A stretch of 64,000 nucleotides of DNA from Bacteroidales bacterium (GCA_016934395.1 JAFGSZ010000017.1:54345-118344), one strand, 5' to 3'. Shown: positions 31,443-58,534, counted from the first letter of the stretch. Numbers and translations are program-made. The notes: generated by a model not told the origin, from the sequence alone.

Positions 31443-32141
31443 CTAGTGCTGGTTTCGGTATAAACAATCCGTTTGTTTACATTTCTGGCAGGGATATTTA
31501 TGTTTTTTAACTTCTTTGCCCAATCCTATAATTCCGCTTACTGATTTTATAGGGCTCATTAATGCAGATTCAGTTAATGTAATGCCGCTAAATTGTTGGG
31601 GAAAAAAGCTGAATAATTCTGCCTGTTCCTTTACGTTCCAGGTGCAATAACCGGGGCTGAAGCGGTTAGTTATGGAATACCTGTATTGATTTGCAGTTTT
31701 ATTAATAAATTGATGGATAATTTCTGCAGTTTCTTCAGCGGCCTCAGAACCAATAATATCAAGAGTATAACCTTCAAGGGAATCCCCTTCACCCATTAAT
31801 TTCCGGGCAAGTTTCTCAATTTTATCTCCGATGGTACAAATAAAAAGAGCAATAAATTCAATTCCGGTTAATTGTGATGCAATAATTCTATTTACATGCA
31901 AGGCTTTTCCATCAATGAGCAGAATACCCTTAGTTTTATCCAAATGATCAATTTTTTTTATAATAAATCCGCCTTTCGGATGAATCAGGTGAATGCTTTC
32001 TGATAAATATTTATTTATTACCACGCTAACCATTTCTTCTGGTTCTTGATGCTTATACCCTAAAAAGCTTAAAATATTCTGCGTATTAATTTTAATATCG
32101 GCAGTATGTATGGGTACATAGGTAATTTGATCCGGTATCAT
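31443..32141 (-). CDS. Methionine-synthase (MetH) activation-domain-like protein with a C-terminal Cys cluster
   Basis: 232 aa. The segment RFSPGYCTWNVKEQAELFSFFP...GITLTESALMSPIKSVSGIIGLG resembles the vitamin-B12-dependent methionine synthase activation domain family. C-terminal CQKCKQTDC. Its start overlaps the upstream stop (ATGA at 32138-32141). Confidence 0.6.
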   Translation of the reverse strand: MIPDQITYVPIHTADIKINTQNILSFLGYKHQEPEEMVSVVINKYLSESIHLIHPKGGFIIKKIDHLDKTKGILLIDGKALHVNRIIASQLTGIEFIALFICTIGDKIEKLARKLMGEGDSLEGYTLDIIGSEAAEETAEIIHQFINKTANQYRYSITNRFSPGYCTWNVKEQAELFSFFPQQFSGITLTESALMSPIKSVSGIIGLGKEVKKHKYPCQKCKQTDCLYRNQH

Positions 32142-33061
32142 GATACAAAATTCTGGTAAAGGTTTTTTAATGTTCTTACATTAATGTTGTATCCCATGGC
32201 AATAATTTCGGTTTGCTTTACCGGAAACTCAATAATTTCTGTACGGTAATCTCCAAATGTTGCCTGCAGGGCAAGTGCTTTTCCATCGTCAAGTAAAATA
32301 TACCCCTTTAGCCGGTAACATAAGGGCACAATACCGGTAATAAAACTTTCCAGTTTATCTTTTTGCAATGGTTTTACAGTTCGTAATACGGCTGAATTTA
32401 TATCGGGCTTACCGGATGTGCCGGAAACGACAAACATTTTTTTATACCCTGCCTGAAATTCTTCTGTCTGCTTATCTAATATATTATCCAGGGAAACATT
32501 GCAAAAGCTTACCGGAAATTTTTCAGCAAATGGATTTATCTCATTCAATCGCGATAAAACAGGATTATAGTTATCATTTAGGTCGGTTTTATTAATAATG
32601 ATATAATCAGCAACCATTACCTGGTGGTTAATCCGGGTCATCAAGGTATTCATTGAAAGATAATTTTTTGCATCTATTATGCAAAAACTACCGGCAAGAA
32701 ATACCAGGTTTTGTAAATCAGGTGAATCAAATATCTGTCCAATTGAAACCGGATCGGAAAGCCCGCTGGCTTCTATAAATATGACATCTGGCCTAAAATC
32801 TTCTACAAATTTTTTAAATGATACGATAAACCCGGATAACAGACATACACAAAAGACCGAACCGTTGTTTATTTCCAGCAGGTCGAATTCTTTACCTGTA
32901 GTTCTGCGAAGTTCTTTTCCATCAAAGTTAGACGGTGCAAATTCATTCTGAATTATTGCAATTTTGAACTGGTCAGAAAGAGTATCAATAACTCTTTGAA
33001 TAAAGGTGGTTTTTCCACTGCCTAAAAAACCTGTAACCAGATATACCGGAATTTTTTTCAA
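32138..33061 (-). CDS. COG0523/CobW-family G3E P-loop GTPase
   Basis: Walker A VTGFLGSGKTT, a switch region EASGLSDP, and NKTD (IINKTDL). The usual CxCC metal motif is degenerate (NGSVFCVCLL). Confidence 0.8.
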   Translation of the reverse strand: MKKIPVYLVTGFLGSGKTTFIQRVIDTLSDQFKIAIIQNEFAPSNFDGKELRRTTGKEFDLLEINNGSVFCVCLLSGFIVSFKKFVEDFRPDVIFIEASGLSDPVSIGQIFDSPDLQNLVFLAGSFCIIDAKNYLSMNTLMTRINHQVMVADYIIINKTDLNDNYNPVLSRLNEINPFAEKFPVSFCNVSLDNILDKQTEEFQAGYKKMFVVSGTSGKPDINSAVLRTVKPLQKDKLESFITGIVPLCYRLKGYILLDDGKALALQATFGDYRTEIIEFPVKQTEIIAMGYNINVRTLKNLYQNFVS

Positions 33062-33150
33062 TAATTTATTTCTAATAATGATTTATTGCTGCCTGGAATT
33101 TTCCCCATTTGAAATTTTCACACTCCTCCTTCATCAGGCAAATTCATTTT

Positions 33151-34770
33151 TTACAAGTCTTTTAGCCATTCTTTGATGATGTCTACCTTTGGAATTTCTC
33201 CCTGGGTTTTTAATTTATGCTCAGTAAGAATTACTGCCGGAGTAATGGCCACTCCATATATCAAACGGGTTTTTTCCTCATATGAAACAGAGAGTTTAAT
33301 GTTTTTTCCGGTTTCTTTAATCGCGGTATCAACATTATTCTTTATTTGTTTGCATTCTTCAGCATTATTTCCAATTATAAGAATTTCGGCTTTATGCGAA
33401 GAAATTATCAGTTTTAACTTTTCATTAATCCGCTGTTGAATAGCAGCAATCAACTCATGTTTAGGCGGAATTTTAGATACAAACGCAATTTTACCGTCGA
33501 TACAAATTGTAGGAATATTTTTCACCATCAGGGAATTCATAAAAGTAACGCTCTCCATTCTTTTTATGGCATGTTCACGCCATTCAACAATCCCTTCAAA
33601 ATGCGGTGCTATATTTTTTACTGCTTCAACCATATACTGACAGGGTGCGCAGGATTCAGAGTCAAGGGTGATGATATCCACGATTATTTTGCCTGCTTTG
33701 CCATAATCTTTCATATTTAACAGGTCGAGATCGACTTCTGATTTCTCCATAGCTCTGACAATGTCCTGCAAATATGGATCTTGCACCAGACTGGTAACTG
33801 CCTGAAGATTTTCAATGGGTGTATCCATTGGTAAATCGCACCCGGGCGCCAGAATAAATCCTTTTTTCCCACCCAGATCCATACATTCCATGGCTTCTCT
33901 CTGTGCATCTTCCGGTGTACCCATGAGCAGTACAACGGTTAACTTCATATTTCCTCCGAAACTAATATTATGTTTCAGCGCTATTTTACCAACAAAATCC
34001 AGGGGTATATTTTCATCAATAGATATATTATCCGGCCGGCAGGCACACATAGCTTCTATATTTTGCTGGGCATGGCCGCAGACAAAAAATGAGCTTAAAG
34101 CGCCCTTATCCCTTATGATCTGAAAAATTTCTGTTGCCGGTTGTGTAACAAACATTTCGAACGAGCCCGGATCAATTTGCGAAGTCATAGGATCAACAAC
34201 AGCAATTATATCGCAACCGGCATCAATATAATAGCCAGCCATAGCTTCACCAACTTTTTTTGTAAACTCAAGGAGCTCGGTTACTTCATCAGGAGATTCC
34301 ATCATTTTCATAAAAATATCGGTTCCCATCAGATGAAGGGCCAGTGTAAACGGGCCGGTTATCAAACCATATAATGCGATATCGGGAAAATTGCTGCGAA
34401 GCTTTTTTGTGGCATTCAGGATCAATGGTATCCTGCCTTCTTTGTTGGATGGAATTTTTAAATCCTGTAGTTTAACACCTTCAGATAGCACATGAGAAAC
34501 CACTGCGGGCGGATTATCTTCAGCCCAGATTAGATTACAACCAAGGGCTTCAGCCTCAACCTGCAGATCAAACATTACGGGAATGCCATCCGGTTTATAG
34601 ATTTCAATAGCTTTGCTAATGCCTTCTACAATATTATTTTCTGATTGCAGAAAGCTGGTAGCGTTTATATTTAAAAGTTTCCCTGCATGACATCCCACAA
34701 AAGGTACCCAGGGAATCCGGTCGCTGTTGCCAAGTTGAAATGATTTTACTACTCGTTCTTTGCCTGTCAT
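33151..34770 (-). CDS. MtaA/CmuA-type (UroD-fold) corrinoid methyltransferase fused to two C-terminal thioredoxin-fold domains
   Basis: Residues 1 to about 345 are UroD-family but lack the HemE PVWxMRQAGR motif, and carry APGCDLPMDTPIENL. Residues about 358-450 are a thioredoxin fold with C374-A-P-C377 (33640-33651) and a cis-Pro box NIPTICIDG. Residues about 458-539 are a second thioredoxin-like fold with the CxxC lost (NAEECK) but ITPAVIL retained. Confidence 0.75.
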   Translation of the reverse strand: MTGKERVVKSFQLGNSDRIPWVPFVGCHAGKLLNINATSFLQSENNIVEGISKAIEIYKPDGIPVMFDLQVEAEALGCNLIWAEDNPPAVVSHVLSEGVKLQDLKIPSNKEGRIPLILNATKKLRSNFPDIALYGLITGPFTLALHLMGTDIFMKMMESPDEVTELLEFTKKVGEAMAGYYIDAGCDIIAVVDPMTSQIDPGSFEMFVTQPATEIFQIIRDKGALSSFFVCGHAQQNIEAMCACRPDNISIDENIPLDFVGKIALKHNISFGGNMKLTVVLLMGTPEDAQREAMECMDLGGKKGFILAPGCDLPMDTPIENLQAVTSLVQDPYLQDIVRAMEKSEVDLDLLNMKDYGKAGKIIVDIITLDSESCAPCQYMVEAVKNIAPHFEGIVEWREHAIKRMESVTFMNSLMVKNIPTICIDGKIAFVSKIPPKHELIAAIQQRINEKLKLIISSHKAEILIIGNNAEECKQIKNNVDTAIKETGKNIKLSVSYEEKTRLIYGVAITPAVILTEHKLKTQGEIPKVDIIKEWLKDL

Positions 34771-34788
34771 TTATTTTATCTAATGGAA

Positions 34789-35448
34789 TTATTGGTTTAA
34801 ATAGGCTACTGCGCCCTGAGGATCCGGAGAATAAAAATCTGCCCCGATTTGTTTTCTGAAATCTTCTGTTACCGGCGCTCCTCCAATTAATATTTCGTTG
34901 TGGGGATAGTGACTTTTTACATTTTGAACAATATCCTTCATGTTCTGCATGGTGGTAGTAAGCAATGCAGATAATCCAACTTTGGCATCCGGATTTTCTG
35001 CCAGAGAAGCAATAATTTTTTCTGACTTAACATCAGTTCCCAGATCAATAACTTCCCATCCGGAACCTTCAATGGCCATTTTAACAAGATTTTTCCCAAT
35101 ATCGTGCAAATCACCCTGAACGGTAGCAAGTATAAATTTTCCTTTTCGCTGGATTTCACCACTTGTAAAAAATGGTTTTAAATGTTCAATGGCTGCATTC
35201 ATGGCTTTTGCTGACATCAGCATCTGTGGAATAAAAATTTTCTTTTCTGAAAATTTCTTTCCTACCCTGTCCATTCCTGTAATTAAGGCCTGTTTAAGAA
35301 TGGTTTCTGCTTTTACGCCCTGCTCAAGAGCTTGTTTTGTAAGCTCATCAGCGCCGTCCTGATCTTTCATATTTGGAGGGTAAGGCGCAGCCTTATTAAT
35401 CTTTCCAAATTCGATACACGTGGTAATCTGTTCTAAAATGTCTTCCAT
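34789..35448 (-). CDS. Corrinoid (cobalamin-binding) protein, MtaC/MtbC-like
   Basis: 219 aa. N-terminal helical cap, then a B12-binding Rossmann domain with DxHxxG (GDLHDIGKN), SxL (LSALLTTT) and GG (LIGGAPV), the signature of base-off/His-on binding. Confidence 0.88.
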   Translation of the reverse strand: MEDILEQITTCIEFGKINKAAPYPPNMKDQDGADELTKQALEQGVKAETILKQALITGMDRVGKKFSEKKIFIPQMLMSAKAMNAAIEHLKPFFTSGEIQRKGKFILATVQGDLHDIGKNLVKMAIEGSGWEVIDLGTDVKSEKIIASLAENPDAKVGLSALLTTTMQNMKDIVQNVKSHYPHNEILIGGAPVTEDFRKQIGADFYSPDPQGAVAYLNQ

Positions 35449-35548
35449 ATGAGAAATTTTTTACTCAATTATATTAAACTCTTGTTTATCTGAAATGATG
35501 ATTTATACAAATATGTTATACTCAATTAAACCGTCTAAAAATAATAAA

Positions 35549-35683
35549 CAATTTGTTGAAAATTCAATATAAACAAACTAAAAAAGCGAATATTCAATTT
35601 GTTGGAAATAATAATACTTTTTGTTGCATTACATAAGAGGCAACAATGTAAAATTAATTGCATTAATATATTTTAATTGCATT
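35549..35683. promoter_or_regulatory. Divergent control region with repeated motifs (candidate operator sites)
   Basis: Direct repeat caatttgttg[a/g]aaa at 35549-35561 and 35595-35608. Inverted repeat ttgttgc-N12-gcaacaa at 35621-35646. Direct repeat ttaattgcatt at 35654-35664 and 35673-35683. Confidence 0.25.
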
Positions 35684-35785
35684 TTTAATTTCTTATTAAA
35701 GATTAAGATCAGCTAAAAAATATTTCTGAAAAATCTTTTGTACAGATGAATTTTATTTATATTTAAAACCGATAAAATTTGAACT

Positions 35786-36814
35786 ATGAAAGATACACAG
35801 TGGAATAATTTAATTAAAGTTGTTAATGGTGAAACACCAGCTTCAGTGCCTGTTGGATTTATTATTGATTGCCCCTGGCTTCCCGGCTGGTATGGGGTAA
35901 ATATACTCGACTACATTACAAATGACGAATTATGGCTTAAGGCCAATTTGAAAGCTATGGAAACTTTTCCGGATGTAACTTTTCTGCCGGGTTTCTGGAG
36001 CGAATATGGTATGTGTACCGAGCCTTCTGCATTTGGTGCAAAATGTACATTCTGGAAAAATGAATTTCCTTTTGCAGATAAAATTATTTACTCTTCAGAA
36101 GATTTGGATAAGGTTAAAGATCCAAATCCCGAAACCGACGGACTTCTACCTTTTATGTTAAACCGGTTATTGCTTGCACAGCCTAAGATTGAAGATGCAG
36201 GTTACAAATTCCGGTTTTCAGTTTCCCGCGGCCCGTTAAACATTGCATCTTTCCTTATGGGTACCTCTGAACTTATGATGGCTATGATGATGGAACCTGA
36301 GAATGTACATAAACTACTCCGTATTATTACCAATTTTCTGAAATCGTGGCATGAAATACAACATAACACCTTTTCGACCATTGAAGGGATTATGATGCTT
36401 GATGATATTGTGGGATTTGTTGGTGAAGAAGAGTTTAAAGAATTCGGACTTCCCTACCTGAAGGAATTATATAATACAAACGATAAAATAAAACTATTCC
36501 ATAACGATGCCGACTGTTCTATGTCGGTAAAATATTACCCCGAGATTGGTATTAACCTCTATAACCCGGGAACACATATGACGGTGAATGATTTAAAATC
36601 AGCCACAGATAACAAAATAACCATTCTGGGTAATATTCCTCCCCGTGATGTGCTGGCATCAGGAACCCCCGAAACGGTCAGTAAAGAAGTAAAGGATTTA
36701 CTTACCGGATTGAAGCAACGCGACAGGTTTATCCTTTCGTGTGGCGGTGGAATGCCTCCGAATGTTTCAACCGAGAATATACAGTCGTTAATTGATACAG
36801 CCAGAAATATCTAA
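35786..36814 (+). CDS. MtaA/CmuA-type (UroD-fold) methyltransferase
   Basis: 342 aa. UroD-family fold signature without the HemE N-terminal motif. C-terminal ILSCGGGMPPNVSTENIQSLI resembles the MtaA-family C-terminal Cys segment. It is divergent from the corrinoid-protein operon. Confidence 0.72.
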   Translation: MKDTQWNNLIKVVNGETPASVPVGFIIDCPWLPGWYGVNILDYITNDELWLKANLKAMETFPDVTFLPGFWSEYGMCTEPSAFGAKCTFWKNEFPFADKIIYSSEDLDKVKDPNPETDGLLPFMLNRLLLAQPKIEDAGYKFRFSVSRGPLNIASFLMGTSELMMAMMMEPENVHKLLRIITNFLKSWHEIQHNTFSTIEGIMMLDDIVGFVGEEEFKEFGLPYLKELYNTNDKIKLFHNDADCSMSVKYYPEIGINLYNPGTHMTVNDLKSATDNKITILGNIPPRDVLASGTPETVSKEVKDLLTGLKQRDRFILSCGGGMPPNVSTENIQSLIDTARNI

Positions 36815-36920
36815 ACAAAGATACAATCTGATATTTTCTGTATTTTGTAATTTGATAATTGAATTGTTGGTTTAGCAAAAAGTACAACTTTCTAAAATTT
36901 CAAACGATCACTCAGGTTCA

Positions 36921-37784
36921 TTACAAATTTTCAGGATTATAGGCTACCTGAGACCTTCCAAATGCACAAATCTGCGCATCTCCGGCAAAGGATTTATAGG
37001 GCTTTGATTCGCAGGTGCCGTTTAAAATCCGGGTCAGACATTCTAACTGATCCAGAATAAAATCACTGGACATGGGTTCGTTATGCCCCGGCAATATAAG
37101 ATTATATTCTTTTAGTCGCTGCGCTTCCTTTTCCACAGATTGTTTATAAACAGATAATGGCAGGCAAACATCTAAAAAGAGCCAGACCAGGTTATTGTTA
37201 TTATCTCCCGAAAATAACAGCTTATTTTGAATATCGAGTAAACTGATACTGCCCGGAGTATGACCGGGAACCTCAATAACCTGTATTTGTCTGCCGCCTA
37301 AATCGAAAACATATCCCTCATTTACGGGGATTAATTTGGTGTTGTGAACTTTTGAATTGTATAAATCCTCCGCAGATAAAGAATTATCCTGCTGGCCCAT
37401 GTTCAGAATTCCTTTTCGTTGATCAGGCTGGTTATACATTCTGGCCTGTGTTGAATCTAAAGCATGAATATAAACCTTTTCGAACTGATAATTTGCTCCG
37501 CTGTGATCGGGATGTGCATGGGTATTTACTACAATTAAAGGTTTATCTGTAAGCCTTTTAGCTTGTGCCTGAAGGTTTGCAATACCTATTCCGGTATCCA
37601 CTAATAGAGCGCTGTCACCTCCTTCAACAAGATAAATATTTGCAGCTTTATGGTCATCAATTACCCAGACCTTATTAGCAACTTCTTTTACAGTAAACCA
37701 TGATGATGTGTTTTGACAATGAATTATGAAAAATCCAAATAGAGAAATATTAATTAGCAGAATTCTTTGAAAAAGTAACTTCAT
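36921..37784 (-). CDS. Secreted MBL-fold metallo-hydrolase
   Basis: 287 aa. Signal peptide. HxHxDH motif (NTHAHPDHSG), with downstream GHTPGS and PGH. Confidence 0.8.
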   Translation of the reverse strand: MKLLFQRILLINISLFGFFIIHCQNTSSWFTVKEVANKVWVIDDHKAANIYLVEGGDSALLVDTGIGIANLQAQAKRLTDKPLIVVNTHAHPDHSGANYQFEKVYIHALDSTQARMYNQPDQRKGILNMGQQDNSLSAEDLYNSKVHNTKLIPVNEGYVFDLGGRQIQVIEVPGHTPGSISLLDIQNKLLFSGDNNNNLVWLFLDVCLPLSVYKQSVEKEAQRLKEYNLILPGHNEPMSSDFILDQLECLTRILNGTCESKPYKSFAGDAQICAFGRSQVAYNPENL

Positions 37785-38026
37785 ATCGGTATAATTTAAG
37801 GAGCTAAAGATAATTTATTAATTCAAATTGAAGAACGGTTATTAATTTTAAAAAGTAAACAAATATATAACTGACCTCAGGGTTTACCTTACATCTTAAT
37901 TTTAATTCATTAATCAGATTCTAAGGCTTTACCTGAAAAATTATAAATACGAATGAATATATTTTAATGAATTGGTAAATTTCAAATATAAAGTTTTTAA
38001 AGTTGTTTCTGTATAAAATATATAAC

Positions 38027-38034
38027 TACCTTTG
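38027..38034 (+). promoter_or_regulatory. Bacteroidota-type -7 promoter box (TAnnTTTG) for the ABC-F gene
   Basis: Exact TACCTTTG match at 38027-38034, 44 nt upstream of the ATG at 38078. Confidence 0.45.
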
Positions 38035-38074
38035 CAGCCCTTTTTAAAATTTAATTCATTAAAGTTTTTATTAG

Positions 38075-39688
<1,614 letters not shown>

Positions 39689-39705
39689 AAAATCCTGTAA
39701 TTAAA

Positions 39706-41234: not shown

Positions 41235-41283
41235 TGAACGAATAAATAGAGGTTAATAATACCGGGAATTTTGCATGAATTTT

Positions 41284-42051: not shown

Positions 42052-42113
42052 ACAAGATTATGAATTACTTTTGCAAATGAAATTTGATAATTTTCGATTA
42101 TAAATTGCAAAAT

Positions 42114-45420: not shown

Positions 45421-45434
45421 TTCAATCGATTGCA
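45421..45434. promoter_or_regulatory. LacI-type palindromic operator O1 (autoregulatory position)
   Basis: The minus strand reads TGCAATCGATTGAA, matching the TGnAAnCGnTTnCA family pattern at 13 of 14 positions. It is directly upstream of the lacI-family ATG. Confidence 0.5.
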
Positions 45435-45488
45435 TTGCAAATTAACGACAATTTAATTATAATAAAAAGTAACTTTTTAAATTAATAA

Positions 45489-45502
45489 TGCAATCGGTTA
45501 CA
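45489..45502. promoter_or_regulatory. LacI-type palindromic operator O2
   Basis: TGCAATCGGTTACA matches the TGnAAnCGnTTnCA dyad pattern at all fixed positions. It lies in the divergent region between the regulator and the GPH transporter/GH10/GH3/GH115 genes. Confidence 0.55.
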
Positions 45503-45822: not shown

Positions 45823-47274
45823 ATGAAACCTGTATCACAAACTTTATCGGTTAAAGAAAAAGTTGGTTTTAGTTTAGGCGACAGTGCCGCTAACTTTATC
45901 TTTCAGACAATTATGCTATTACAGCTAAGTTTTTATACCGATTCATTCGGAATATCTGCTGGAGTAGCTGCCGTACTTTTTCTGGTTGGCCGCCTCTGGG
46001 GCGCAGTTGCAGATCCCTTGATGGGAGTTATTGCAGATAGGACAAATACGCGCTGGGGAAAATTCAGGCCATGGATTCTATGGACTGCTATTCCTTTCGG
46101 AGTAATTGGCTTTTTAGCATTCACGACGCCAGACTTTGAAACAACCGGTAAAATAATTTATGCTTTTGTGACTTATTTTTTGTTGATGTCTGTTTATTCA
46201 GCAAATAATATTCCTTATTCAGCACTTAGCGGAGTAATTACAGGTGATCAAAAACAACGGAACAGCCTTTTCTCCTATCGTTTTGTTTTTGTTGTTTTAG
46301 CAACTATAGCTATTCAGGGTTTTGCCGTACCCATGGTGAATCATTTCGGACAGGGAGATACCGCCAAAGGTTACCAGATTACAATGGGGATATTTTCTGC
46401 CCTAGCCATTATATTCTTTTTAATTACATTCTCTACAACCCGTGAAAGAATTAAACCCGATCCAAAACAACAATCTTCATTAAAAGAAGATGTTCTTACC
46501 CTGGTTAAAAACCGCCCATGGGTAATTATGTTCCTTGTTTTTGTGATGATGTTTGTTTTTCTTTCTGTGAGAAACGGTATTTTGTTATATTATTTTAGGT
46601 ATTATTTAGACACAGACAGTATGGCCGTTTTTATGGAAAGCATAAATAAAGGTTTATTCGGCTTACTTGAAAAAATTGGTATGGCAGGTGCAAATGCTGA
46701 TGTTGCCGGAAGCGTATTTGGCATAACTAATATTTTTGGCCAGCTTTCTGCGATTTTAGGAATTATGGTATCCAATTTTCTGGCTGTTAAATTTGGTAAA
46801 AGAAATATTTTTATTTTCGGTTTAGCACTTGCAATGATATTCGGAGCATTGTATATGGTTGTTTCACCCAGTGGTGTAATTTTGGTGCTGCTGCTTCAGA
46901 TATTATTCAATTTTTCATGGGGAATCACTATGCCGCTACCATGGGCAATGATGGCCGATGTGGCAGATTATTCAGAATGGAAATTTAACCGGCGGTCTAC
47001 TGCTATTGTATTTGCCGGAATTGTAATAGGTCTTAAAGTCGGTTTGGCTCTTGGAGGTGCATTGGGCGGATTACTTCTAAAATGGTACGGGTATGTGCCC
47101 AACGTAGCTCAAACAGCACATTCAATTATGGGTATTCGTTTAACAACAAGTATTTATCCAGCTATTGCTGTAATTGCTGTAATTATCTTGTTATTATTTT
47201 ATAAAATAAATCAGAAAATGGAACTTACAATTCAGGATGATCTTGTTGAGAGAAGAAAATCCTATGAATCTTAA
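45823..47274 (+). CDS. Glycoside-pentoside-hexuronide (GPH):cation symporter, MFS superfamily (probable xylo-oligosaccharide or glucuronide transporter)
   Basis: 483 aa. About 12 TM segments. GPH N-terminal signature LSVKEKVGFSLGDSAANFIFQ and GRLWGAVADPLMGVIADRT. Confidence 0.82.
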   Translation: MKPVSQTLSVKEKVGFSLGDSAANFIFQTIMLLQLSFYTDSFGISAGVAAVLFLVGRLWGAVADPLMGVIADRTNTRWGKFRPWILWTAIPFGVIGFLAFTTPDFETTGKIIYAFVTYFLLMSVYSANNIPYSALSGVITGDQKQRNSLFSYRFVFVVLATIAIQGFAVPMVNHFGQGDTAKGYQITMGIFSALAIIFFLITFSTTRERIKPDPKQQSSLKEDVLTLVKNRPWVIMFLVFVMMFVFLSVRNGILLYYFRYYLDTDSMAVFMESINKGLFGLLEKIGMAGANADVAGSVFGITNIFGQLSAILGIMVSNFLAVKFGKRNIFIFGLALAMIFGALYMVVSPSGVILVLLLQILFNFSWGITMPLPWAMMADVADYSEWKFNRRSTAIVFAGIVIGLKVGLALGGALGGLLLKWYGYVPNVAQTAHSIMGIRLTTSIYPAIAVIAVIILLLFYKINQKMELTIQDDLVERRKSYES

Positions 47275-47313
47275 TAGTATTGAAGGTTTCCATTTAAAAT
47301 AAAACATGGTACA

Positions 47314-48450
47314 ATGAATAGAAATAATATATTGAGACGATCTGTTTACGTCCTTACGATTTTTATAACAGGTACTCTATTTTGCTCTTCTTGCAGTAAG
47401 CCTGAAGTTACAATAAAAGATACTTTTAAGGATTATTTTTTAATTGGCGGGGCATTAAATGCTGAACAAATTCTTGGAATCGATTCCCTTGCCCAAACTG
47501 TTTTGATAAAGCATTTTAATTCAGTAACCGCTGAAAATGCTATGAAATGGGAAAGAATACATCCTGAACCGGACCAATATAATTTTGAACTGGCAGATAG
47601 TCTGGTTGCCTTAGGGGTTCGAAATGGAATGTTTGTTATTGGACATACGCTGGTATGGCACCATCAGACTCCTAATTGGGTTTTTGAAGATTCATTGGGA
47701 AACCCGGTAACACGAGATGTTCTCCTTCAAAGAATGAAAGACCATATATTTACTGTTGTAGGCCGGTATAAAGGTCGTATAAATGGATGGGATTTGGTAA
47801 ATGAAGCTTTGACCGAAGACGGACAGTTGAGGAATTCAAAATGGTATGAAATAATCGGTGAAGATTATATTCAGAAAGCATTTGAATTTGCTCATGAAGC
47901 AGATCCGGAAGCTGAGCTTTATTACAATGATTATAACATAGAAAACCCGGGGAAAAGAGAAGGCGCTCTGAAACTTTTAAAAAGCCTTCAGGAATCGGGA
48001 GCTAAAATTGACGGCGTTGGTATTCAGGCGCACTGGCATTTGGATTTTCCCGAATTGTCTGATATAGATACCAGTGCATCGCAATTTGGCGCATTAGGAC
48101 TTAAGGTTATGTATACTGAACTGGATGTGAATGTACTTCCAAGACCGGAAAATTTAACAGGAGCTGAAATTTCACAAAACTTTGAATTAAATCAGCAAAT
48201 GAATCCTTTTCCTGAAACTTTGCCGGATTCAATGCAGGAAAAATTATCTGAACATTATGCCACCTTGTTTAAAATATTTCTTAAACACAGTGATTATGTG
48301 AGCAGGGTAACCTTATGGGGAATTCAGGACGGTCAGTCATGGCTGAACAATTGGCCTGTTCAGGGAAGAACGAATTATCCCCTGCTTTTCGACAGGAATT
48401 ATCAACCAAAACCCGCTTATTATGCCATAATTAAAACGGCTGAGAAATAA
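47314..48450 (+). CDS. Endo-1,4-beta-xylanase, GH10 (lipoprotein)
   Basis: 378 aa. Lipobox FCSSC. GH10 catalytic segments WDLVNEAL (acid/base) and MYTELDV (nucleophile). Confidence 0.88.
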   Translation: MNRNNILRRSVYVLTIFITGTLFCSSCSKPEVTIKDTFKDYFLIGGALNAEQILGIDSLAQTVLIKHFNSVTAENAMKWERIHPEPDQYNFELADSLVALGVRNGMFVIGHTLVWHHQTPNWVFEDSLGNPVTRDVLLQRMKDHIFTVVGRYKGRINGWDLVNEALTEDGQLRNSKWYEIIGEDYIQKAFEFAHEADPEAELYYNDYNIENPGKREGALKLLKSLQESGAKIDGVGIQAHWHLDFPELSDIDTSASQFGALGLKVMYTELDVNVLPRPENLTGAEISQNFELNQQMNPFPETLPDSMQEKLSEHYATLFKIFLKHSDYVSRVTLWGIQDGQSWLNNWPVQGRTNYPLLFDRNYQPKPAYYAIIKTAEK

Positions 48451-48491
48451 AACTGTAAATCTGATTTCTGTACCATCAAAGAATTTGAAAT

Positions 48492-50804
48492 ATGCAAACT
48501 TCAGAAGACGATTTATTAAAAAATGCAGCTTATAAAAACTCTAAGCTGTCCATTGAAAAAAGAGTCGCAGATTTATTATCACGAATGACCCTTGAAGAGA
48601 AAGTGGCACAAATGGTTTGTCACTGGCAGAAAAAAAATGAATCGTTGCTGGATGAAAAAGGGAACTTCGATTATAAAAAAGCGCAGGAATATTTCAAAGA
48701 TGGTTTTGGACTGGGACAGGTAGGACGTTCAAGCGATGCCGGTGGGGGTAAAAATGCCGTTGAGATGGCTGTATTAACTAATGCCATTCAAAAATTTTTT
48801 ATCGAAAACAGCCGGCTGGGAATCCCTGTAATTTTTCATGAGGAATGTCTTCATGGACATGCTGCACCGGGAGGTACCAGTTTTTCTCAACCCATTGGTT
48901 TAGGTGCAACCTTTAATCCTGAGCTTGTTGAAAAGCTTTTTGAAATGACGGCGGAAGAAGCCCGGGTAAGAGGAACGCATCAGGCCCTTACTCCGGTTGT
49001 TGATGTGGCGCGTGATCCCCGCTGGGGCCGTGTGGAAGAGACATACGGTGAGGACCCGTACCTTGTTTCCCGCATGGGGGTGGCTGCTGTTAAAGGTTTT
49101 CAGGGTGATGGTTCATTTAACGATAAGAAACATATTATTGCCACCCTGAAGCATTTTGCAGCACATGGACAGCCTGAATCAGGAACAAACTGTGCTCCGG
49201 TTAATGTATCGGAACGGATTCTGAGAGAGGTATTTTTATATACATTCAAAAAAGCAATTATTGAAGGCGGAGCTTTAAGCATTATGCCGTCTTATAATGA
49301 AATTGACGGTGTTCCTTCTCATGCCAATACATGGTTGCTCAGGGATGTCCTTCGCGGTGAATGGGGATTTAAAGGTTTTGTTGTTTCTGATTATTATGCC
49401 ATTCGCGAATTAAATGAACGCCCGGAACTTTACGGGCATCATCTCGCAAAAGATGGTAAAGAAGCTGCAATTCTTGCTGTTAAAGCCGGAGTAAATATTG
49501 AACTTCCGGAACCTGATTGTTATAAGCATATTATTGAAGCTGTTAACGAAGGCAATATTAAATTATCCCTTATTGATGAACTGGTTTCAGATTTATTATA
49601 CTTCAAGTTCAAAATGGGATTATTTGATGATCCTTATGTGGACCCAATGGCAGCTGAAAGAGTTGTGGGAAGAGATAAAAACTCAAAACTTGCGCTGCAG
49701 GCGGCACGTGAGACTATTACCCTGTTGAAAAATGATGGCAACGTTGCGCCTCTGGATTTAAAAAATATTAAAACTATTGCGGTAATCGGGCCAAATGCAA
49801 ACCGTGAATTGCTTGGCGGATATAGTGGGATTCCTAAAAAAGTCTCTACTGTGCTTGAAGGTATTCGTGAACGCGTGGGAAATTCTGTTAACATATTATA
49901 TCACGAAGGGTGTAAAATTACTATTGGGGGTTCTTGGTGGCAGGATGAAGTTACTCCCAACAATCCTGAAGAAGACCGGGAAAGTATTATTCAGGCCGTG
50001 GAGGTTGCAAAAAAAGCCGATGTAATTGTACTGGCTATAGGTGGAAACGAACAAACTTCCCGCGAAGCCTGGATGGGTAACCATATGGGTGACCGTTCCA
50101 ATCTGCAAATGGTAGGTTTACAGGATGAATTGGTAGATAAACTGGCACTTCTCGGAAAACCAATAATTGCCTTCGTTTTTAACGGTCGTCCCCTGTCTTT
50201 TGTAAATCTTGCAAAAAAAGCATCAACACTTTTTGAATGCTGGTATCTTGGTCAGGAAACCGGGACGGCAATAGCTGAAGTGCTTTTTGGCGATGTTAAT
50301 CCGGGAGGAAAACTTCCAATTACCATTCCCCGCTCCGTTGGCCATATTCCGGCATATTATAATTATAAACCATCCGCACGCCGAGGATACCTCTTTGATG
50401 ATGTATCTCCGCTTTTTGCATTTGGTTTTGGATTAAGTTATACACAGTTTAAATTTAAAAATATTAGACTCGAAAAATCAAATATTCATTTTTCTGAATC
50501 TACAAAACTTCTTGTTGATGTTACCAATACCGGAAAAATCGCCGGCGATGAAGTGGTTCAGATGTATATCAGGGATAAAATAAGCTCGGTTACGCGTCCA
50601 GTAAAAGAACTTAAAGGATTTTTACGTATTACTCTTCAACCCGGAGAAACAAAAACAGTTGAATTGAATATTACACCTGAACATCTTTCATTCTGCGATA
50701 TACATATGGATTATGTGGTTGAACCGGGAGAATTTGAAATTATGGCGGGCAATTCATCCCGGGATAAAGACCTTCAAAAAGTTTTGCTCGTTGTGCATGA
50801 TTAG
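48492..50804 (+). CDS. GH3 beta-glucosidase/beta-xylosidase (no obvious signal peptide)
   Basis: 770 aa. GH3 N-domain with nucleophile segment GFVVSDY, a C-terminal alpha/beta domain and an Fn3-like domain (GDEVVQMYIRD). Confidence 0.85.
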   Translation: MQTSEDDLLKNAAYKNSKLSIEKRVADLLSRMTLEEKVAQMVCHWQKKNESLLDEKGNFDYKKAQEYFKDGFGLGQVGRSSDAGGGKNAVEMAVLTNAIQKFFIENSRLGIPVIFHEECLHGHAAPGGTSFSQPIGLGATFNPELVEKLFEMTAEEARVRGTHQALTPVVDVARDPRWGRVEETYGEDPYLVSRMGVAAVKGFQGDGSFNDKKHIIATLKHFAAHGQPESGTNCAPVNVSERILREVFLYTFKKAIIEGGALSIMPSYNEIDGVPSHANTWLLRDVLRGEWGFKGFVVSDYYAIRELNERPELYGHHLAKDGKEAAILAVKAGVNIELPEPDCYKHIIEAVNEGNIKLSLIDELVSDLLYFKFKMGLFDDPYVDPMAAERVVGRDKNSKLALQAARETITLLKNDGNVAPLDLKNIKTIAVIGPNANRELLGGYSGIPKKVSTVLEGIRERVGNSVNILYHEGCKITIGGSWWQDEVTPNNPEEDRESIIQAVEVAKKADVIVLAIGGNEQTSREAWMGNHMGDRSNLQMVGLQDELVDKLALLGKPIIAFVFNGRPLSFVNLAKKASTLFECWYLGQETGTAIAEVLFGDVNPGGKLPITIPRSVGHIPAYYNYKPSARRGYLFDDVSPLFAFGFGLSYTQFKFKNIRLEKSNIHFSESTKLLVDVTNTGKIAGDEVVQMYIRDKISSVTRPVKELKGFLRITLQPGETKTVELNITPEHLSFCDIHMDYVVEPGEFEIMAGNSSRDKDLQKVLLVVHD

Positions 50805-50921
50805 GCCGGAAATTACCAGCATCAATTTCGGCTTCTAATTTCCTTATAAGGAAATATTTTTAATTATTAACCTAAATTCTACTAAACAATGGAAAATTTA
50901 TCTGTAAAGGTAAATTGGATA

Positions 50922-53882
50922 ATGAAATCCATTTCTTTTATAACCTCAAATGCAAAAAGTAATTTTAGATATCTGAAATTAAACCGATTATCAGATTTAT
51001 TTAAGTTAATGGTTCTGATGGTGATTATTGTAACCTGCGGAAGTCCTGTTTTTGCTGTAGGCAATCCATCATATATAAGTATTACAAAAAGCGATGGGTA
51101 TTTCCCACTGGTAACGGAAGGACAGGCAGCCACAATATTTGCAAGTAACGGGGACTACCCGGGAGTAGTTCGGGTAGTGAAAGAATTGCAAAAAGATTTA
51201 ACTTCGGTAACTGGAAATTCCCCGGCATTATTTTTTGATGAGAAACCTAAGACAGAAAATGTTATAATAATAGGAACACTGGGTAAGAATCCGTTAATTG
51301 ATAAGTTGTTTAAGAAAAAGAAACTCAATGTTTCCGAGGTAGAAGGAAAATGGGAAACTTTTCTGATTCAGACAATTGAAAATCCCATGCCAGGTGTAAA
51401 AATGGCCCTTGTTATTGTCGGAAGCGACAAAAGGGGAACTATATATGGAATATACGATTTATGTGAGCAAATTGGGGTTTCACCCTGGAACTGGTGGGCT
51501 GATGTTCCGGTTAAAAAACAGAATAATCTGTATATACTTCCCGGAAAACACAGTTTAGGAGAACCGGCTGTAAAGTACCGGGGCATTTTTATTAATGATG
51601 AAGCTCCTGCTTTATCTGGCTGGACTGCTGAAAAATTCGGGGGATTTAATCATTTATTTTATGAAAAAGTTTTTGATCTTATCCTGCGCCTAAAAGGGAA
51701 TTACCTGTGGCCGGCAATGTGGGGTAGTGCATTTTACGACGATGATACATTAAACCCGGTAAGGGCAGATGAATACGGAATAGTAATCGGGACTTCACAC
51801 CATGAACCGCTGATGCGTGCCCATGCTGAATGGCGTAAATACGGTTCAGGGCCCTGGAACTACGAAAAAAATAAAGAAAAACTGCAGGAATTCTGGAGGA
51901 TCGGAATCGAAAGAATGGGTACCAATGAAAGTCTAGTAACCGTTGGCATGCGAGGCGATGGTGACGAACCCATGACAGAAGGAACTGCAATATCACTGTT
52001 AGAAAATATTGTTAAAGACCAGCGTGAAATAATCGAAGAAGCAACAGGTAAAAAAAATGAAGATGTTCCGCAAGTATGGGCCTTGTATAAGGAGGTGCAG
52101 GATTATTACGATAAAGGCATGCGTGTTCCGGAGGATGTGACCCTGTTATGGTGTGACGATAACTGGGGAAATGTTCGAAGGCTTCCAAAAAAAGATGATC
52201 CTCCCCGTTCCGGAGGTTATGGCATGTATTATCATTATGATTTTGTTGGCGGACCAAGAAATTACAAATGGCTAAACACTACACAAATAGAACGGGTTTG
52301 GGAACAGATGAACTTAAGTTATCAATATGGTGTAGACCGTATATGGATTGTTAATGTGGGTGATATTAAACCCATGGAATTGCCCATAAGTTTCTTCCTT
52401 GATTTTGCATGGGCCCCGGAAAAATGGCCTGCAGAAAGGCTGCCTGAATATTATAATTTATGGGCCGAACAACAGTTTGGGAAACAATTCAGTGAAAAAA
52501 TTGCTCATATTCTGGCCATGTACACCAAGTATAATTCCAGGCGTAAACCGGAAATGCTGGCCCCCGATACTTACAGCTTAATTAATTACAGAGAAGCCGA
52601 GACAGTGGTAAACGATTATAATAACCTTGCCCGGGAGGCTGAAACTATTTTTAATGAATTGCCTGATGAATATAAAGATGCCTACTATCAGCTGGTACTT
52701 TTTCCTGTAAAAGCCTGTGCCAACCTAAACGAACTTTATGTTACAACAGCTAAAAACTATCTGTATGCCAAGCAGCAGCGGGCATCAACTAATCTGATGG
52801 CCCAAAAAGTAAAGGATCTTTATGAGAAGGATGCCGAATTAACGGAATATTACCATAAAAATATGTCTGATGGTAAGTGGAACCATATGATGTCTCAGAT
52901 TCATATAGGATATACTTATTGGCAACAACCGCAAAAGAGTAAAATGCCTGATGTTAAAGAAATAATAATTTCTGATAAACCGGCAATGGGAATCGCAATT
53001 GAAGGATCGGAAAAATGGTGGCCAAATGATACGGGAGAAGCAGTGTTACCCGCATTTGATCCATTTGGTACAGACCATTATATTGATATTTTTAATCAGG
53101 GAAAAAATTCATTTACCTATACTCTACAGACTAATGCCAACTGGTTAAAAGTATCTGCTGATAGTGCTGAAATAGATAAACAAAAAAGATTGTGGGTTTC
53201 TGCAGACTGGTCCAAAGTACCTGAAGGGGATTCTAAAGTTTCAATAACAATAACAGGATCTGAAGGCACTAAAGTTATTGTTTATGCCAATGTTTTCAAT
53301 TTTTTATCCCGGATACCTGAAAACTTTGAAGGGTTTATTGAAAGTAACGGGGTAATATCCACTGAGGCAGTACATTATTCAAAGAAAGTAAACTCAAATG
53401 ATGCCCATTGGGAGCAGATACCGAATCTTGGACGCACCCTTTCTGCCATGACCCTTTTCCCGGTTAATGCGAAAAGTCAGTTGCCAGAAGAAAATGGACC
53501 GCATTTAGAATACAATATGTTTGTAACTAACCCGGGGTCGGTAAAGGTAAATGTTTATTTATCCCCTACTCAGAATTTTCATGATACCCAGGGGCTCAGG
53601 TATGCTGTTTCATTCGATGATGAAACTCCTGTATTGGTAAATATCCATGAGTATGATACTATCCCTGATTGGAAATATCCCGAGGAATGGAATATTGCAG
53701 TTGGTGAAAATATTAAAATTAAATCATCGGAACATACCCTTTCATCAGCAGGCGTGCACACATTAAAATTCCGGATGGTAGATCCGGGTTTTGTATTACA
53801 GAAAATAGTAGTTGAAACCGGTGAACCAAAATATTCTTATCTCGGACCTCCTGAGAGTTATTATTTAAAAAGGAAAAATTAA
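50922..53882 (+). CDS. GH115 xylan alpha-glucuronidase
   Basis: About 986 aa. Segments typical of GH115 include GVVRVVKELQKDLTSVTG, VGSDKRGTIYGIYDLCEQIGVSPWNWWADVP and RGIFINDE. The start is ambiguous between 50889 and 50922. Confidence 0.82.
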   Translation: MKSISFITSNAKSNFRYLKLNRLSDLFKLMVLMVIIVTCGSPVFAVGNPSYISITKSDGYFPLVTEGQAATIFASNGDYPGVVRVVKELQKDLTSVTGNSPALFFDEKPKTENVIIIGTLGKNPLIDKLFKKKKLNVSEVEGKWETFLIQTIENPMPGVKMALVIVGSDKRGTIYGIYDLCEQIGVSPWNWWADVPVKKQNNLYILPGKHSLGEPAVKYRGIFINDEAPALSGWTAEKFGGFNHLFYEKVFDLILRLKGNYLWPAMWGSAFYDDDTLNPVRADEYGIVIGTSHHEPLMRAHAEWRKYGSGPWNYEKNKEKLQEFWRIGIERMGTNESLVTVGMRGDGDEPMTEGTAISLLENIVKDQREIIEEATGKKNEDVPQVWALYKEVQDYYDKGMRVPEDVTLLWCDDNWGNVRRLPKKDDPPRSGGYGMYYHYDFVGGPRNYKWLNTTQIERVWEQMNLSYQYGVDRIWIVNVGDIKPMELPISFFLDFAWAPEKWPAERLPEYYNLWAEQQFGKQFSEKIAHILAMYTKYNSRRKPEMLAPDTYSLINYREAETVVNDYNNLAREAETIFNELPDEYKDAYYQLVLFPVKACANLNELYVTTAKNYLYAKQQRASTNLMAQKVKDLYEKDAELTEYYHKNMSDGKWNHMMSQIHIGYTYWQQPQKSKMPDVKEIIISDKPAMGIAIEGSEKWWPNDTGEAVLPAFDPFGTDHYIDIFNQGKNSFTYTLQTNANWLKVSADSAEIDKQKRLWVSADWSKVPEGDSKVSITITGSEGTKVIVYANVFNFLSRIPENFEGFIESNGVISTEAVHYSKKVNSNDAHWEQIPNLGRTLSAMTLFPVNAKSQLPEENGPHLEYNMFVTNPGSVKVNVYLSPTQNFHDTQGLRYAVSFDDETPVLVNIHEYDTIPDWKYPEEWNIAVGENIKIKSSEHTLSSAGVHTLKFRMVDPGFVLQKIVVETGEPKYSYLGPPESYYLKRKN

Positions 53883-58527: not shown

Positions 58528-58534
58528 TGCAGAT

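Follow-up and report, generated by a model that had tools for sequence, protein, structure and literature searches.

Gene content of the corrinoid cluster and the adjoining xylan locus

The stretch of DNA considered here, referred to as the window, is a 64,000-nucleotide segment from a Bacteroidales bacterium (GCA_016934395.1 JAFGSZ010000017.1:54345-118344) in which a compact corrinoid gene cluster (31443-36814) lies close to genes for the degradation of glucuronoxylan. A first-pass annotation had proposed that the corrinoid system demethylates 4-O-methyl-D-glucuronate (MeGlcA) released by the products of the neighbouring GH67 and GH115 genes. The reading preferred here, held with somewhat less than even confidence, is that the cluster encodes a cytoplasmic three-component corrinoid methyl-transfer system acting on a methoxy compound derived from glucuronoxylan, of which MeGlcA is the likeliest. 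What carries this reading is the zinc motif predicted for one of the proteins, UroD2, and the repeated occurrence of its orthologues in xylan operons of other genomes.

Gene identities in the window were taken from Pfam and NCBIfam searches, which recovered all the genes named earlier at, or a few bases from, the positions given to them (Table 1), and two window proteins have NCBI entries that match them at 100% identity, MBN2347848.1 being one. Four minus-strand genes encode a corrinoid protein (CorrP), a protein that joins a URO-D domain to thioredoxin-like domains (UroD-Trx), a CobW-family GTPase and a stand-alone MetH-type activation protein (Act), and they diverge from the plus-strand gene for a second URO-D protein, UroD2. 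The cluster appears to combine parts of two modules that are widespread in phyla of the FCB group. The 64-kb window contains no homocysteine methyltransferase of the PF02574 type (HcyMT; tblastn, best E = 6.6) and no RamA or RACo activase, the PF02965 protein being present instead; nor was a pterin-binding methyltransferase (PF00809) found among the open reading frames scanned across the window or in the related modules described below. An Rfam scan at gathering thresholds, covering the window and ten related loci, gave two tRNAs only and no S-adenosylmethionine (SAM) or B12 riboswitch. A scan for sigma-70 promoters and terminators produced counts no higher than in shuffled sequence, and the consensus is not known to suit Bacteroidota promoters.

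With 57.8 bits against the NCBIfam hemE model (cutoff 302.95), UroD2, which carries no signal peptide, is not a HemE by that curated standard, and it also falls below the cutoff of the MtaA/CmuA model TIGR01463 (63 bits, cutoff 235). A sequence search of the Protein Data Bank (PDB) returned HemE only, at about 1e-8, and no characterised methyltransferase. The AlphaFold model (mean pLDDT 90.7) is a UroD-type TIM barrel with a best TM-score of 0.80, to MtaA (4AY7), and HemE and MtaA score nearly equally in Foldseek; the predicted fold confirms the superfamily and not the substrate. The residues H239-N-D241-A and C244 are the same in all 83 homologues compared, and C319 in nearly all. H239 aligns with the zinc-binding histidine of MtaA and D241 with its first zinc-binding cysteine, while the position of the second is occupied by glycine, C319 lying two residues upstream. 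In the UroD superfamily a His-Cys-Cys site has been associated with S-methyltransferases, and replacement of cysteine by a carboxylate or a non-ligand with O-methyltransferases (PMC10418091). By that criterion the predicted His-x-Asp zinc motif makes UroD2 an O-type enzyme, because Asp stands in place of one cysteine and Gly in place of the other; membership of the UroD superfamily together with a predicted zinc-site cysteine replaced by a carboxylate is also what would be expected of the first methyltransferase (MT I) of an O-demethylase. The family is about 70-76% identical within Bacteroidota, a conservation equal to that of UroD-Trx. Matches to the UroD superfamily number in the thousands, and the 120 listed for each of two queries were all at least about 69% identical.

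UroD-Trx is closest to MtaA (NCBIfam PRK06252, 2.1e-48; best PDB sequence match 4AY7, E = 2.4e-26). It is S-type as judged from the alignment, both zinc cysteines being kept: Cys231 and Cys311 align with those of MtaA, and the histidine is shifted to residue 233 (C-G-H, not H-x-C). Its scores of 147 bits against TIGR01463 (cutoff 235) and 76.3 bits against hemE (cutoff 302.95) make it MtaA-like, yet outside the MtaA/CmuA family by curated criteria, and we propose that it is the methyl-corrinoid:thiol methyltransferase (MT2) of the system. The two thioredoxin-like domains span residues 369-539. The first contains CAPC at 374-377, within an invariant SESCAPCQYM; the second has no CxxC, its single cysteine varies across homologues, and it is probably not redox-active. 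Weak NCBIfam matches link the UroD-Trx cluster to selenoprotein-associated thioredoxin and CobW families. The CobW GTPase, presumed to be a metallochaperone, has the P-loop GFLGSGKT and NKTD, and a metal motif reduced to CVCL. CorrP combines a B12-binding_2 cap with a B12-binding domain, carries the DxHxxG motif of corrinoid proteins as DLHDIG at residue 113, and matches the metH model at 1.7e-38. In Act, cysteines 166, 218, 221 and 226 form a C-terminal CX2CX4C plus a fourth cysteine within an SPGYC motif, and the same pattern occurs in the Act of L041, the representative of the largest homologue cluster. These cysteines might coordinate a metal or an Fe-S cluster, neither of which, as far as we know, is present in the MetH activation domain; the RFSPGYC motif we take to correspond to the region with which MetH binds SAM. 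Four other loci (L096, L112, L134 and L152) likewise combine an O-type UroD2 with a UroD of the canonical H-x-C...C (S) type.

Further URO-D paralogues of 418-428 residues were seen about 4-6 kb upstream of CorrP in L016, L018, L034 and L062. They carry an H-S-C-G ... T-V-H-N motif, with His in place of the second cysteine, and have as neighbours a Tat-signal Gfo/Idh/MocA oxidoreductase, a GH120-insertion/beta-helix protein and, except in L034, a 3-keto-disaccharide hydrolase (DUF1080); they may represent another sugar-linked corrinoid methyltransferase.

Beyond three unrelated genes, the end of ManD lies 3.2 kb from that of UroD2, close to the roughly 3 kb estimated earlier. The intervening genes are those listed at the time, namely an MBL hydrolase, an ABC-F ATPase and a remnant of PF12843, which we believe to be the family once named DUF3820. 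GH67, a short-chain dehydrogenase/reductase (SDR) and ManD form a minus-strand operon (40026-44264), in which GH67 would release (Me)GlcA and the SDR and ManD would feed glucuronate into the 2-keto-3-deoxygluconate (KDG) route. They are followed by a LacI-family regulator with two palindromic operators and by a plus-strand xylan operon (45823-56752) of MFS_2, GH10, GH3, GH115, DUF6807 and Oxidoreduct_C. The xylan locus is larger than first described: the genes originally assigned to it are there, and to them are added DUF6807, Oxidoreduct_C, GH43, an FMN reductase and GH3-PA14. Orthologues of the GH43 (57-64% identical) stand between GH115 and the UroD2 module in eight related loci. The idea of the FMN reductase as a conserved source of electrons for reactivating the corrinoid was considered and dropped, the gene having no homologue in 171 related loci.

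Table 1. Features of the window, with positions counted from its first nucleotide
Feature	Position	Strand	Basis or remark
Two tRNA genes	12573-12645 and 12938-13010	-	only Rfam matches in the window
GH16/PKD-like protein and CBM4_9/TSP_3 protein with type IX secretion system (T9SS) tail	23681-26122	-	
Low-GC stretch	26001-30000		GC 0.29-0.30, against about 0.37 elsewhere in the window
LytTR response regulator	27328-28065		inside the low-GC stretch
HisKA_2 histidine kinase	28119-29279		inside the low-GC stretch
Act, stand-alone MetH-type activation protein	31443-32141	-	Pfam Met_synt_B12 PF02965, E = 6.1e-13
CobW/COG0523-family GTPase	32138-33061	-	Pfam cobW, E = 3.7e-35
UroD-Trx, 539 aa, MtaA-like URO-D domain and two thioredoxin-like domains	33151-34770	-	Pfam URO-D and Thioredoxin_3
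CorrP, corrinoid (B12-binding) methyl-carrier protein	34789-35448	-	PF02607 1.6e-19, PF02310 1.3e-24
Intergenic region, 337 bp, between UroD2 and the divergent corrinoid-protein operon	35449-35785		sequence read directly
UroD2, 342 aa, second URO-D protein	35786-36814	+	Pfam URO-D, E = 5.8e-37
Secreted MBL hydrolase	36921-37784		between cluster and uronate genes
ABC-F ATPase	38078-39688		between cluster and uronate genes
PF12843 fragment, 48 aa	39706-39852		matches family positions 1-35 of 66 only
ManD mannonate dehydratase	40026-41234	-	NCBIfam ManD equivalog, 668 bits, cutoff 550
SDR, mannonate-oxidoreductase-like	41284-42051	-	Pfam/NCBIfam
GH67 alpha-glucuronidase	42114-44264	-	Pfam/NCBIfam; signal peptide
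LacI-family regulator	44389-45435	-	Pfam LacI and Peripla_BP
Two LacI palindromic operators	45421-45434 and 45489-45502		operator search
MFS_2 symporter, GH10, GH3	45823-50804	+	Pfam
GH115	50889 or 50922 to 53882	+	Pfam; signal peptide
DUF6807	53986-55224	+	Pfam
Oxidoreduct_C	55385-56752	+	Pfam
GH43 beta-xylosidase	56797-58557	-	Pfam
NADPH-dependent FMN reductase	58535-59167	-	Pfam; overlaps GH43 start by 23 bp
GH3-PA14	59250-61937	-	Pfam

The low-GC stretch is situated directly upstream of a DUF6588 gene and the corrinoid cluster. The GH16/PKD-like and CBM4_9/TSP_3 proteins make up a small glycan-degrading pair apart from the xylan locus.

Related modules and their genomic neighbourhoods

A metagenome scan with a UroD2 alignment gave 80 further loci, and 171 related loci (numbered with the prefix L) were compared overall. 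The genes beside UroD2 in 84 homologue loci include HcyMT (at least 24 loci), a corrinoid protein (19) and a PF02965 activation protein (15). Taken by their domains, UroD2, HcyMT, CorrP and Act amount to a four-part MetH-like system in which a UroD fold occupies the pterin-binding slot. No description of such a UroD/HcyMT/corrinoid/Act module was found in the searchable literature, the coverage of which leaves out most subscription journals, and a MetH-like system with a UroD-fold protein in place of the folate module, whatever its substrate, appears to be undescribed. UroD2 diverges from an HcyMT/CorrP/Act operon in seven long contigs of the window's own clade (L081-L084, L169 and L171 among them), and the arrangement in the window, with CorrP, UroD-Trx, CobW and Act facing UroD2, is that of L082 (CorrP, HcyMT, Act) with HcyMT swapped, UroD-Trx and CobW filling its slot. 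The window is the sole case among the 171 loci in which UroD2 and UroD-Trx share one corrinoid protein. Its CorrP and Act fall at the boundary between the clades of the UroD2-type and UroD-Trx-type modules; CorrP is 53-74% identical to corrinoid proteins of both types (nearest L006, L005 and L082), and Act is the conserved last gene in both.

The UroD-Trx module was scanned for with one genome per species, which gave at least 580 loci encoding relatives of the protein, of which 80 were used for counts. The protein is 62-76% identical across Bacteroidales, Prolixibacteraceae, Marinilabiliaceae and Cyclobacteriaceae, and its conserved operon runs CorrP, UroD-Trx, HcyMT, CobW, Act, with an AraC regulator on the opposite strand. 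A corrinoid protein is present in 74/80 loci, CobW in 71/80, a PF02574-type HcyMT of about 294 residues in 61/80, AraC in 40/80 and a GntP permease in 15/80; RACo-like genes occur in 5/80. In three loci MtaB (PF12176, 4.8e-117) and RACo-type activases stand beside UroD-Trx, CorrP and CobW (L054:20642-21616, L063 and L076). The loci with MtaB come from metagenome-assembled genomes labelled Bacteroidaceae, Bacteroides and Chitinophaga, and L054, L055 and L063 have no HcyMT. From this gene content, Bacteroidota may have a bacterial methanol system of the MtaABC kind, in which UroD-Trx plays the part of MtaA. The closest relatives of the window's UroD-Trx (L001-L003, 74-75% identical) have CobW and no adjacent corrinoid protein, and are co-directional with carbohydrate esterases, as in L001 (1034-13712) with its SASA esterase, DUF5703_N protein and BD-FAE esterase. 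On the other strand nearby, L001 and L002 carry a CE8 pectin methylesterase and a GH20b/GH67N-like protein of 911-944 residues.

The association of UroD2 with genes of glucuronoxylan degradation came to light in the 80 loci of the metagenome scan. In seven of them, found by searching with the window proteins, a GH115 gene 54-63% identical to that of the window lies a few kb upstream of UroD2, and in L140 a ManD (75%) and SDR (62%) pair is divergently adjacent to it. In L163 one strand reads SASA esterase, beta-helix protein, GH115, GH43, CorrP, HcyMT, Act, UroD2, T9SS protein, GH10 and GH67, and a TRAP transporter and UxuA are on the opposite strand. With a LacI gene as divider, L145 has GH115, CorrP, HcyMT, CE4, Act, UroD2, an aldo-keto reductase and GH97, and L149 has GH8, GH115, an aldo-keto reductase, a BD-FAE esterase, UroD2, MFS, GH3 and MFS_2. 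L158, L159 and L161 share the order (GH8), GH115, GH43, UroD2, followed in L158 by GH88, and the context of L130 is similar to that of the other GH115-linked loci. Four more loci were chosen by taxon and sequence length alone, and GH115 is upstream and co-directional in 4/4: L165 (Melioribacteraceae; GH115, GH43, GH10, CorrP, HcyMT, Act, UroD2), L166 (Calditrichaceae; a LacI divider, then GH115, GH43, HcyMT, Act, UroD2), L167 (KSB1; GH8, GH115, GH9, UroD2, aldose epimerase) and L168, in which GH115, a CE15 glucuronoyl esterase and GH43 are accompanied by UxuA and an SDR and by CorrP, HcyMT, Act, UroD2, an esterase and GH88. LacI homologues flank the GH115-UroD2 operons of L145, L149, L161 and L166. 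The partner genes encode enzymes for the release (GH115, GH67, CE15) and the breakdown (UxuA/ManD, SDR) of the (methyl)glucuronate side chain.

In a neighbour-joining tree the xylan-linked UroD2 genes fall into one clade, the members of which are assigned by source name to Melioribacteraceae/Ignavibacteriales, Calditrichaceae and KSB1. Within this clade GH115 occurs no more than 10 kb from UroD2 by tblastn in 10/15 informative loci (those with 3 kb or more of flanking sequence), or in 11/15 if L168, where GH115 is cut by the locus edge, is counted by Pfam, and three of the remaining four have ManD/SDR, GH3 or GH10. The corresponding figures are 0/51 for loci of the other UroD2 clades (Fisher p = 1.4e-8) and 0/80 for UroD-Trx loci. 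Pairwise identities among the xylan-linked UroD2 proteins are only 63-80%, the GC content of their hosts spans 29-49% and their genes stand in at least five orders; this comparison of loci shows that the linkage has survived long divergence and repeated rearrangement, a mark of functional coupling. A family member is also annotated in cultured Rosettibacter primus (WP_353677982.1), on a contig that has the same downstream genes as L165 and ends on the GH115 side, so that the proposed function is open to a direct test.

Several other features recur around UroD2. A T9SS-tail protein of about 752 residues, with no other Pfam domain, is encoded directly downstream in L145 (14022-16283), L163 (11061-13319), L172 (4202-6460) and L173 (1213-3471), and may be an unrecognised carbohydrate-active enzyme (CAZyme) of the glucuronoxylan locus. 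In L165 and L172 it belongs to a longer conserved run with an SGL-domain T9SS protein, a protein of about 705 residues (a weak GH65m match in L165), a DUF362 T9SS protein and a second URO-D protein (339-346 residues). Three GH115-linked loci (L130:7800-9100, L158:11089-12360 and L168:12248-13492) have a GH88 gene, for an unsaturated glucuronyl hydrolase, immediately after UroD2; it could point to a parallel lyase-type route that eliminates methanol to leave a 4,5-unsaturated uronate, or to other uronate substrates. In one clade UroD2 is preceded by a PF13557 ('Phenol_MetA_deg') channel (L120, L122, L126, L131, L137, L139, L143, L150 and L151), and in five of these nine loci a 433-residue pyridoxal phosphate-dependent (PALP) enzyme comes before the channel.

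Proposed demethylation of 4-O-methyl-glucuronate and its rivals

We infer the substrate, the direction of transfer and the methyl acceptor from gene content, folds, motifs and conserved neighbourhoods. GH67 and GH115 would free MeGlcA in the periplasm, from which it would be imported. UroD2 would act as the substrate-specific first methyltransferase (MT1), the zinc at its His239/Asp241 (plus Cys) site polarising the O4 ether in a manner analogous to the activation of methanol by MtaB, and Co(I) of the corrinoid protein would take the methyl group by SN2 attack to give methyl-Co(III), leaving glucuronate for the SDR/ManD route to KDG. In the relatives HcyMT would unload methyl-Co(III) onto homocysteine to give methionine, and in the window UroD-Trx would unload it onto a thiol, be it homocysteine, sulfide or another. 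Act would restore Co(I) from oxidised Co(II) through a reductive methylation that draws on SAM, as happens in MetH, and CobW probably loads a metal. Because the retro-aldol cleavage of the 2-keto-3-deoxy-6-phosphogluconate (KDPG) type needs a free C4 hydroxyl, we would expect the 4-O-methyl group to be removed before the sugar is catabolised. The absence of a SAM or B12 riboswitch before the modules is easier to reconcile with a catabolic role than with regulation by methionine. The tetrahydrofolate acceptor of the anaerobic O-demethylases to which the earlier proposal appealed finds no counterpart in the gene content, which points to a thiol instead (homocysteine in the relatives, the substrate of an MtaA-like enzyme here).

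A number of observations weigh against this scheme. To our knowledge no corrinoid enzyme cleaves an aliphatic sugar methyl ether, and the known O-demethylases act on aryl methyl ethers, in which phenolate is a far better leaving group. By a rough estimate the catabolic methyl supply would be some ten times the demand for methionine, more than homocysteine could absorb. There may, speculatively, be two outlets for the methyl group, methionine and an overflow thiol such as sulfide, because HcyMT often co-occurs with an S-type UroD (61/80 UroD-Trx loci; L112 and L152); Holophaga foetida reportedly forms methanethiol and dimethyl sulfide (DMS) from methoxy-aromatics and sulfide in a corrinoid-dependent manner. 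Among the window's genes, neither a uronate transporter nor a uronate isomerase was seen. The link within it is one of proximity, over 3.2 kb and three unrelated genes, with no shared LacI operator: the palindrome TGCAATCGATTGCA occurs at two or fewer mismatches only at 45421 and 45489, and at three or fewer gives 4 matches against 3.9 expected by chance, of which only those two are good. The search found no operator of this type in 35449-35785 or near the corrinoid cluster, as the first-pass annotation had already remarked of that intergenic region. The window's UroD2, moreover, belongs to a separate clade of Bacteroidota, sharing 69-76% identity with its fellow members and 58-62% with the xylan clade; GH115, GH67 and ManD stand beside no other locus of its clade, and none of these, nor GH10, occurs in the 51 informative loci outside the xylan clade. 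The seven contigs with the divergent arrangement are mostly not CAZyme-rich, L081-L084 lying in housekeeping neighbourhoods, and GH67, GH115, ManD and GH10 are beside UroD-Trx in 0/80 loci.

The invariance of the catalytic motifs across the window clade and the xylan clade argues for a common function, and there is a second path by which the Bacteroidota genes may be joined to xylan. In L170, the UroD2 of which is 72% identical to that of the window, an ECF (extracytoplasmic function) sigma/anti-sigma pair, SusC, SusD, DUF6807 and GFO are followed by UroD2 as the last gene. DUF6807 and GFO adjoin UroD2 also in L116 and L119, and DUF6807 alone does so in L106; in L046 the two stand beside a more distant, 49%-identical UroD2 paralogue. 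The Bacteroidota context of UroD2 leads back to the xylan operon because DUF6807 and Oxidoreduct_C follow GH115 in the window. LacI-family genes adjoin UroD2 in L096 and L099. The preferred reading assumes that the window's UroD2 does what its xylan-embedded orthologues do. The demethylation hypothesis is in our judgement partly supported: the phylogenomic association with GH67/GH115 to which it had been tied was borne out for UroD2, mainly in the sister clade (11/15), and the O-type motif agrees with it, but the association does not extend to UroD-Trx and CobW (0/80) or to the window's clade, and the physical link in the window is loose.

A methoxylated aromatic is a possible substrate, and a reading in which UroD2 demethylates a xylan-associated compound of this kind (ferulate, sinapate or lignin-derived phenolics), the methyl group passing to the same thiol acceptors, is unlikely rather than negligible. 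[quoted passage not shown] An esterase of the feruloyl-esterase family BD-FAE adjoins UroD2 in L149, where it is directly upstream, and UroD-Trx-CobW in L001, which also tells against a sugar substrate; the CE15 of L168 cleaves lignin-glucuronoyl esters; and the PF13557 'phenol degradation' channel of the outer membrane precedes UroD2 in 9 loci. The conserved partners, however, are enzymes of (Me)GlcA (GH115, GH67, UxuA/ManD and SDR), a feruloyl esterase is missing from most GH115-linked loci, no locus showed genes for aromatic catabolism, and the UroD2 of L170 sits in a SusC/SusD locus with sugar-type oxidoreductases.

It might also be that UroD2 acts on some other glycan-derived methyl compound, such as a further O-methyl sugar handled by loci with DUF6807 and GFO, with the adjacency in the window coincidental and only the sister clade specialised for xylan. 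The recurrent neighbours in the window's clade are indeed DUF6807 and GFO, or a GH51-like gene (L107 and L108), and not GH115, which occurs in 0/51 loci of the other clades; in a CAZyme-rich genome, three unrelated genes and no shared operator separate the two loci of the window. Yet DUF6807 and Oxidoreduct_C belong to the window's own GH115 operon, so that the contexts converge, 58-62% identity and unchanging catalytic motifs are what isofunctional orthologues typically show, and L140 has the ManD/SDR neighbours of the window. We regard this explanation, too, as having a low probability.

Still less probable is that UroD2, HcyMT, CorrP and Act constitute a B12-dependent methionine synthase in which UroD2 uses methyl-tetrahydrofolate or another universal donor and the xylan links are without meaning. 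In the relatives, separate genes encode three of the five MetH modules (homocysteine-binding, B12-binding and activation), the conservation within Bacteroidota (about 70-76%) is very high, and L081-L084 lie among housekeeping genes. A biosynthetic enzyme would, however, be unexpected in LacI-flanked xylan operons of three phyla and five gene orders, or at the end of a SusC/SusD locus, and no SAM or B12 riboswitch was found in the window or the ten related loci scanned. L171 has a separate PF00809 gene nearby, though this is possibly FolP, and we know of no methyl-folate-binding enzyme with a UroD fold.

Participation of the whole cluster in methyl-sulfur or methyl-selenium metabolism (DMS, methanethiol, methylmercaptopropionate (MMPA) or methyl-selenides), as proposed for the type 1 mlp clusters and with no role in xylan use, is about as improbable. 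In its favour are the resemblance of UroD-Trx to MtaA, its soft Cys/Cys zinc site, the CxxC of one of its thioredoxin domains, the weak NCBIfam matches to selenoprotein-linked thioredoxin and CobW families, and an operon with AraC (40/80) and GntP (15/80) and without GH115, GH67, ManD or GH10; ClMlp2, moreover, methylates selenide and sulfide (PMC10418091). Such a role leaves the O-type motif of UroD2 and its orthologues in xylan operons unexplained, however, the Ram/RACE activase that helps to define type 1 mlp clusters is absent, and the closest UroD-Trx relatives (L001-L003) are co-directional with carbohydrate esterases.

To return to the demethylation of MeGlcA, we suggest, tentatively and with appreciably less than even confidence, that UroD2 is the first corrinoid O-demethylase for an aliphatic sugar methyl ether (4-O-methyl-glucuronate), in a conserved oxygen-independent module that also comprises a corrinoid protein, a homocysteine or MtaA-like methyltransferase and a MetH-type activator and is distributed from Bacteroidota to Melioribacteraceae/Ignavibacteriales, Calditrichaceae and KSB1. 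In hardwood xylan, as in many others, the principal acidic side chain is 4-O-methyl-glucuronic acid. If the suggestion is right, the module would unblock the catabolism of this side chain in hardwood xylan and channel its methyl group directly into methionine or another thioether, and the use of xylan would depend on vitamin B12. Sugar ethers would join aryl ethers and methanol among the substrates of corrinoid methyl transfer, the breakdown of hemicellulose in sediments, digesters and guts would be linked to the supply of cobamides and to methionine and C1-sulfur metabolism, and an enzyme for the tailoring of glucuronoxylan would be at hand. Within the same searchable literature, nothing was found on the anaerobic removal of the MeGlcA methyl ether, on bacterial enzymatic demethylation of MeGlcA or on corrinoid demethylation of any sugar, and an O2-dependent cytochrome P450 for 6-O-methyl-galactose was the only sugar O-demethylase. 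Enterobacter asburiae JDR-1 is reported to release methanol from methylglucuronoxylose.

Comparison with known systems

The closest general resemblance is to the O-demethylases of acetogens and Desulfitobacterium (Odm, Vdm and Mtv), which have the same succession of a UroD-fold MT I, a corrinoid protein, a second methyltransferase and a repair protein, and in which the zinc motif of MT I likewise has a carboxylate for a cysteine. Those enzymes act on aryl methyl ethers, whereas the context here points to an aliphatic sugar ether. Their second methyltransferase (MT II) is a pterin-binding tetrahydrofolate methyltransferase, in place of which thiol methyltransferases (HcyMT or MtaA-like) are found here, and their repair relies on an ATP-dependent RACo/RamA activase, the counterpart of which here is a MetH-type SAM-dependent domain.

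With MetH the relatives share the homocysteine-binding (PF02574), B12 cap plus B12-binding and activation (PF02965) modules, all as separate genes, but the pterin-binding module that handles methyl-tetrahydrofolate is replaced by a UroD-fold protein. The window departs further from MetH, having the B12-binding and PF02965 domains and neither PF02574 nor PF00809, with the MtaA-like thioredoxin fusion and CobW where the homocysteine module would be. Split MetH forms described in the GapMind paper all keep the pterin-binding domain, and other split or core forms are described there and in the folate-independent methionine synthase paper.

MtaABC and MtsAB of Methanosarcina provide a parallel for the second half of the system, in that UroD-Trx is MtaA-like, retains both zinc cysteines and is encoded beside its own corrinoid protein. 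It differs from MtaA in scoring below the curated cutoffs, in the displaced zinc histidine and in its fusion to thioredoxin-like domains, and coenzyme M, the acceptor of MtaABC, cannot be assumed in Bacteroidota. Loci in which a corrinoid protein accompanies a single MtaA-like enzyme (L005, L010, L011 and L058) resemble MtsAB.

The type 1 mlp clusters (PMC10418091), compared by description, likewise contain several MtaA-like UroDs with a corrinoid protein and no tetrahydrofolate methyltransferase. They have, however, a Ram/RACE activase, Mlps that are almost all His-Cys-Cys, hosts that are obligate anaerobes, mostly Firmicutes, and sulfur or selenium genes (PMC10418091), unlike the present cluster with its MetH-type activator, one O-type UroD, CAZyme context and Bacteroidota host.

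Finally, a cytochrome P450, encoded with polysaccharide-degrading genes, demethylates 6-O-methyl-D-galactose in marine Bacteroidota (PMC6292453). The problem is the same, that of a methyl ether blocking the catabolism of a polysaccharide sugar, but the P450 works oxidatively, with a need for O2 and with formaldehyde as a product, whereas the proposed system would be independent of O2 and would transfer the methyl group intact, by SN2 attack, to Co(I) and conserve it as a thioether.

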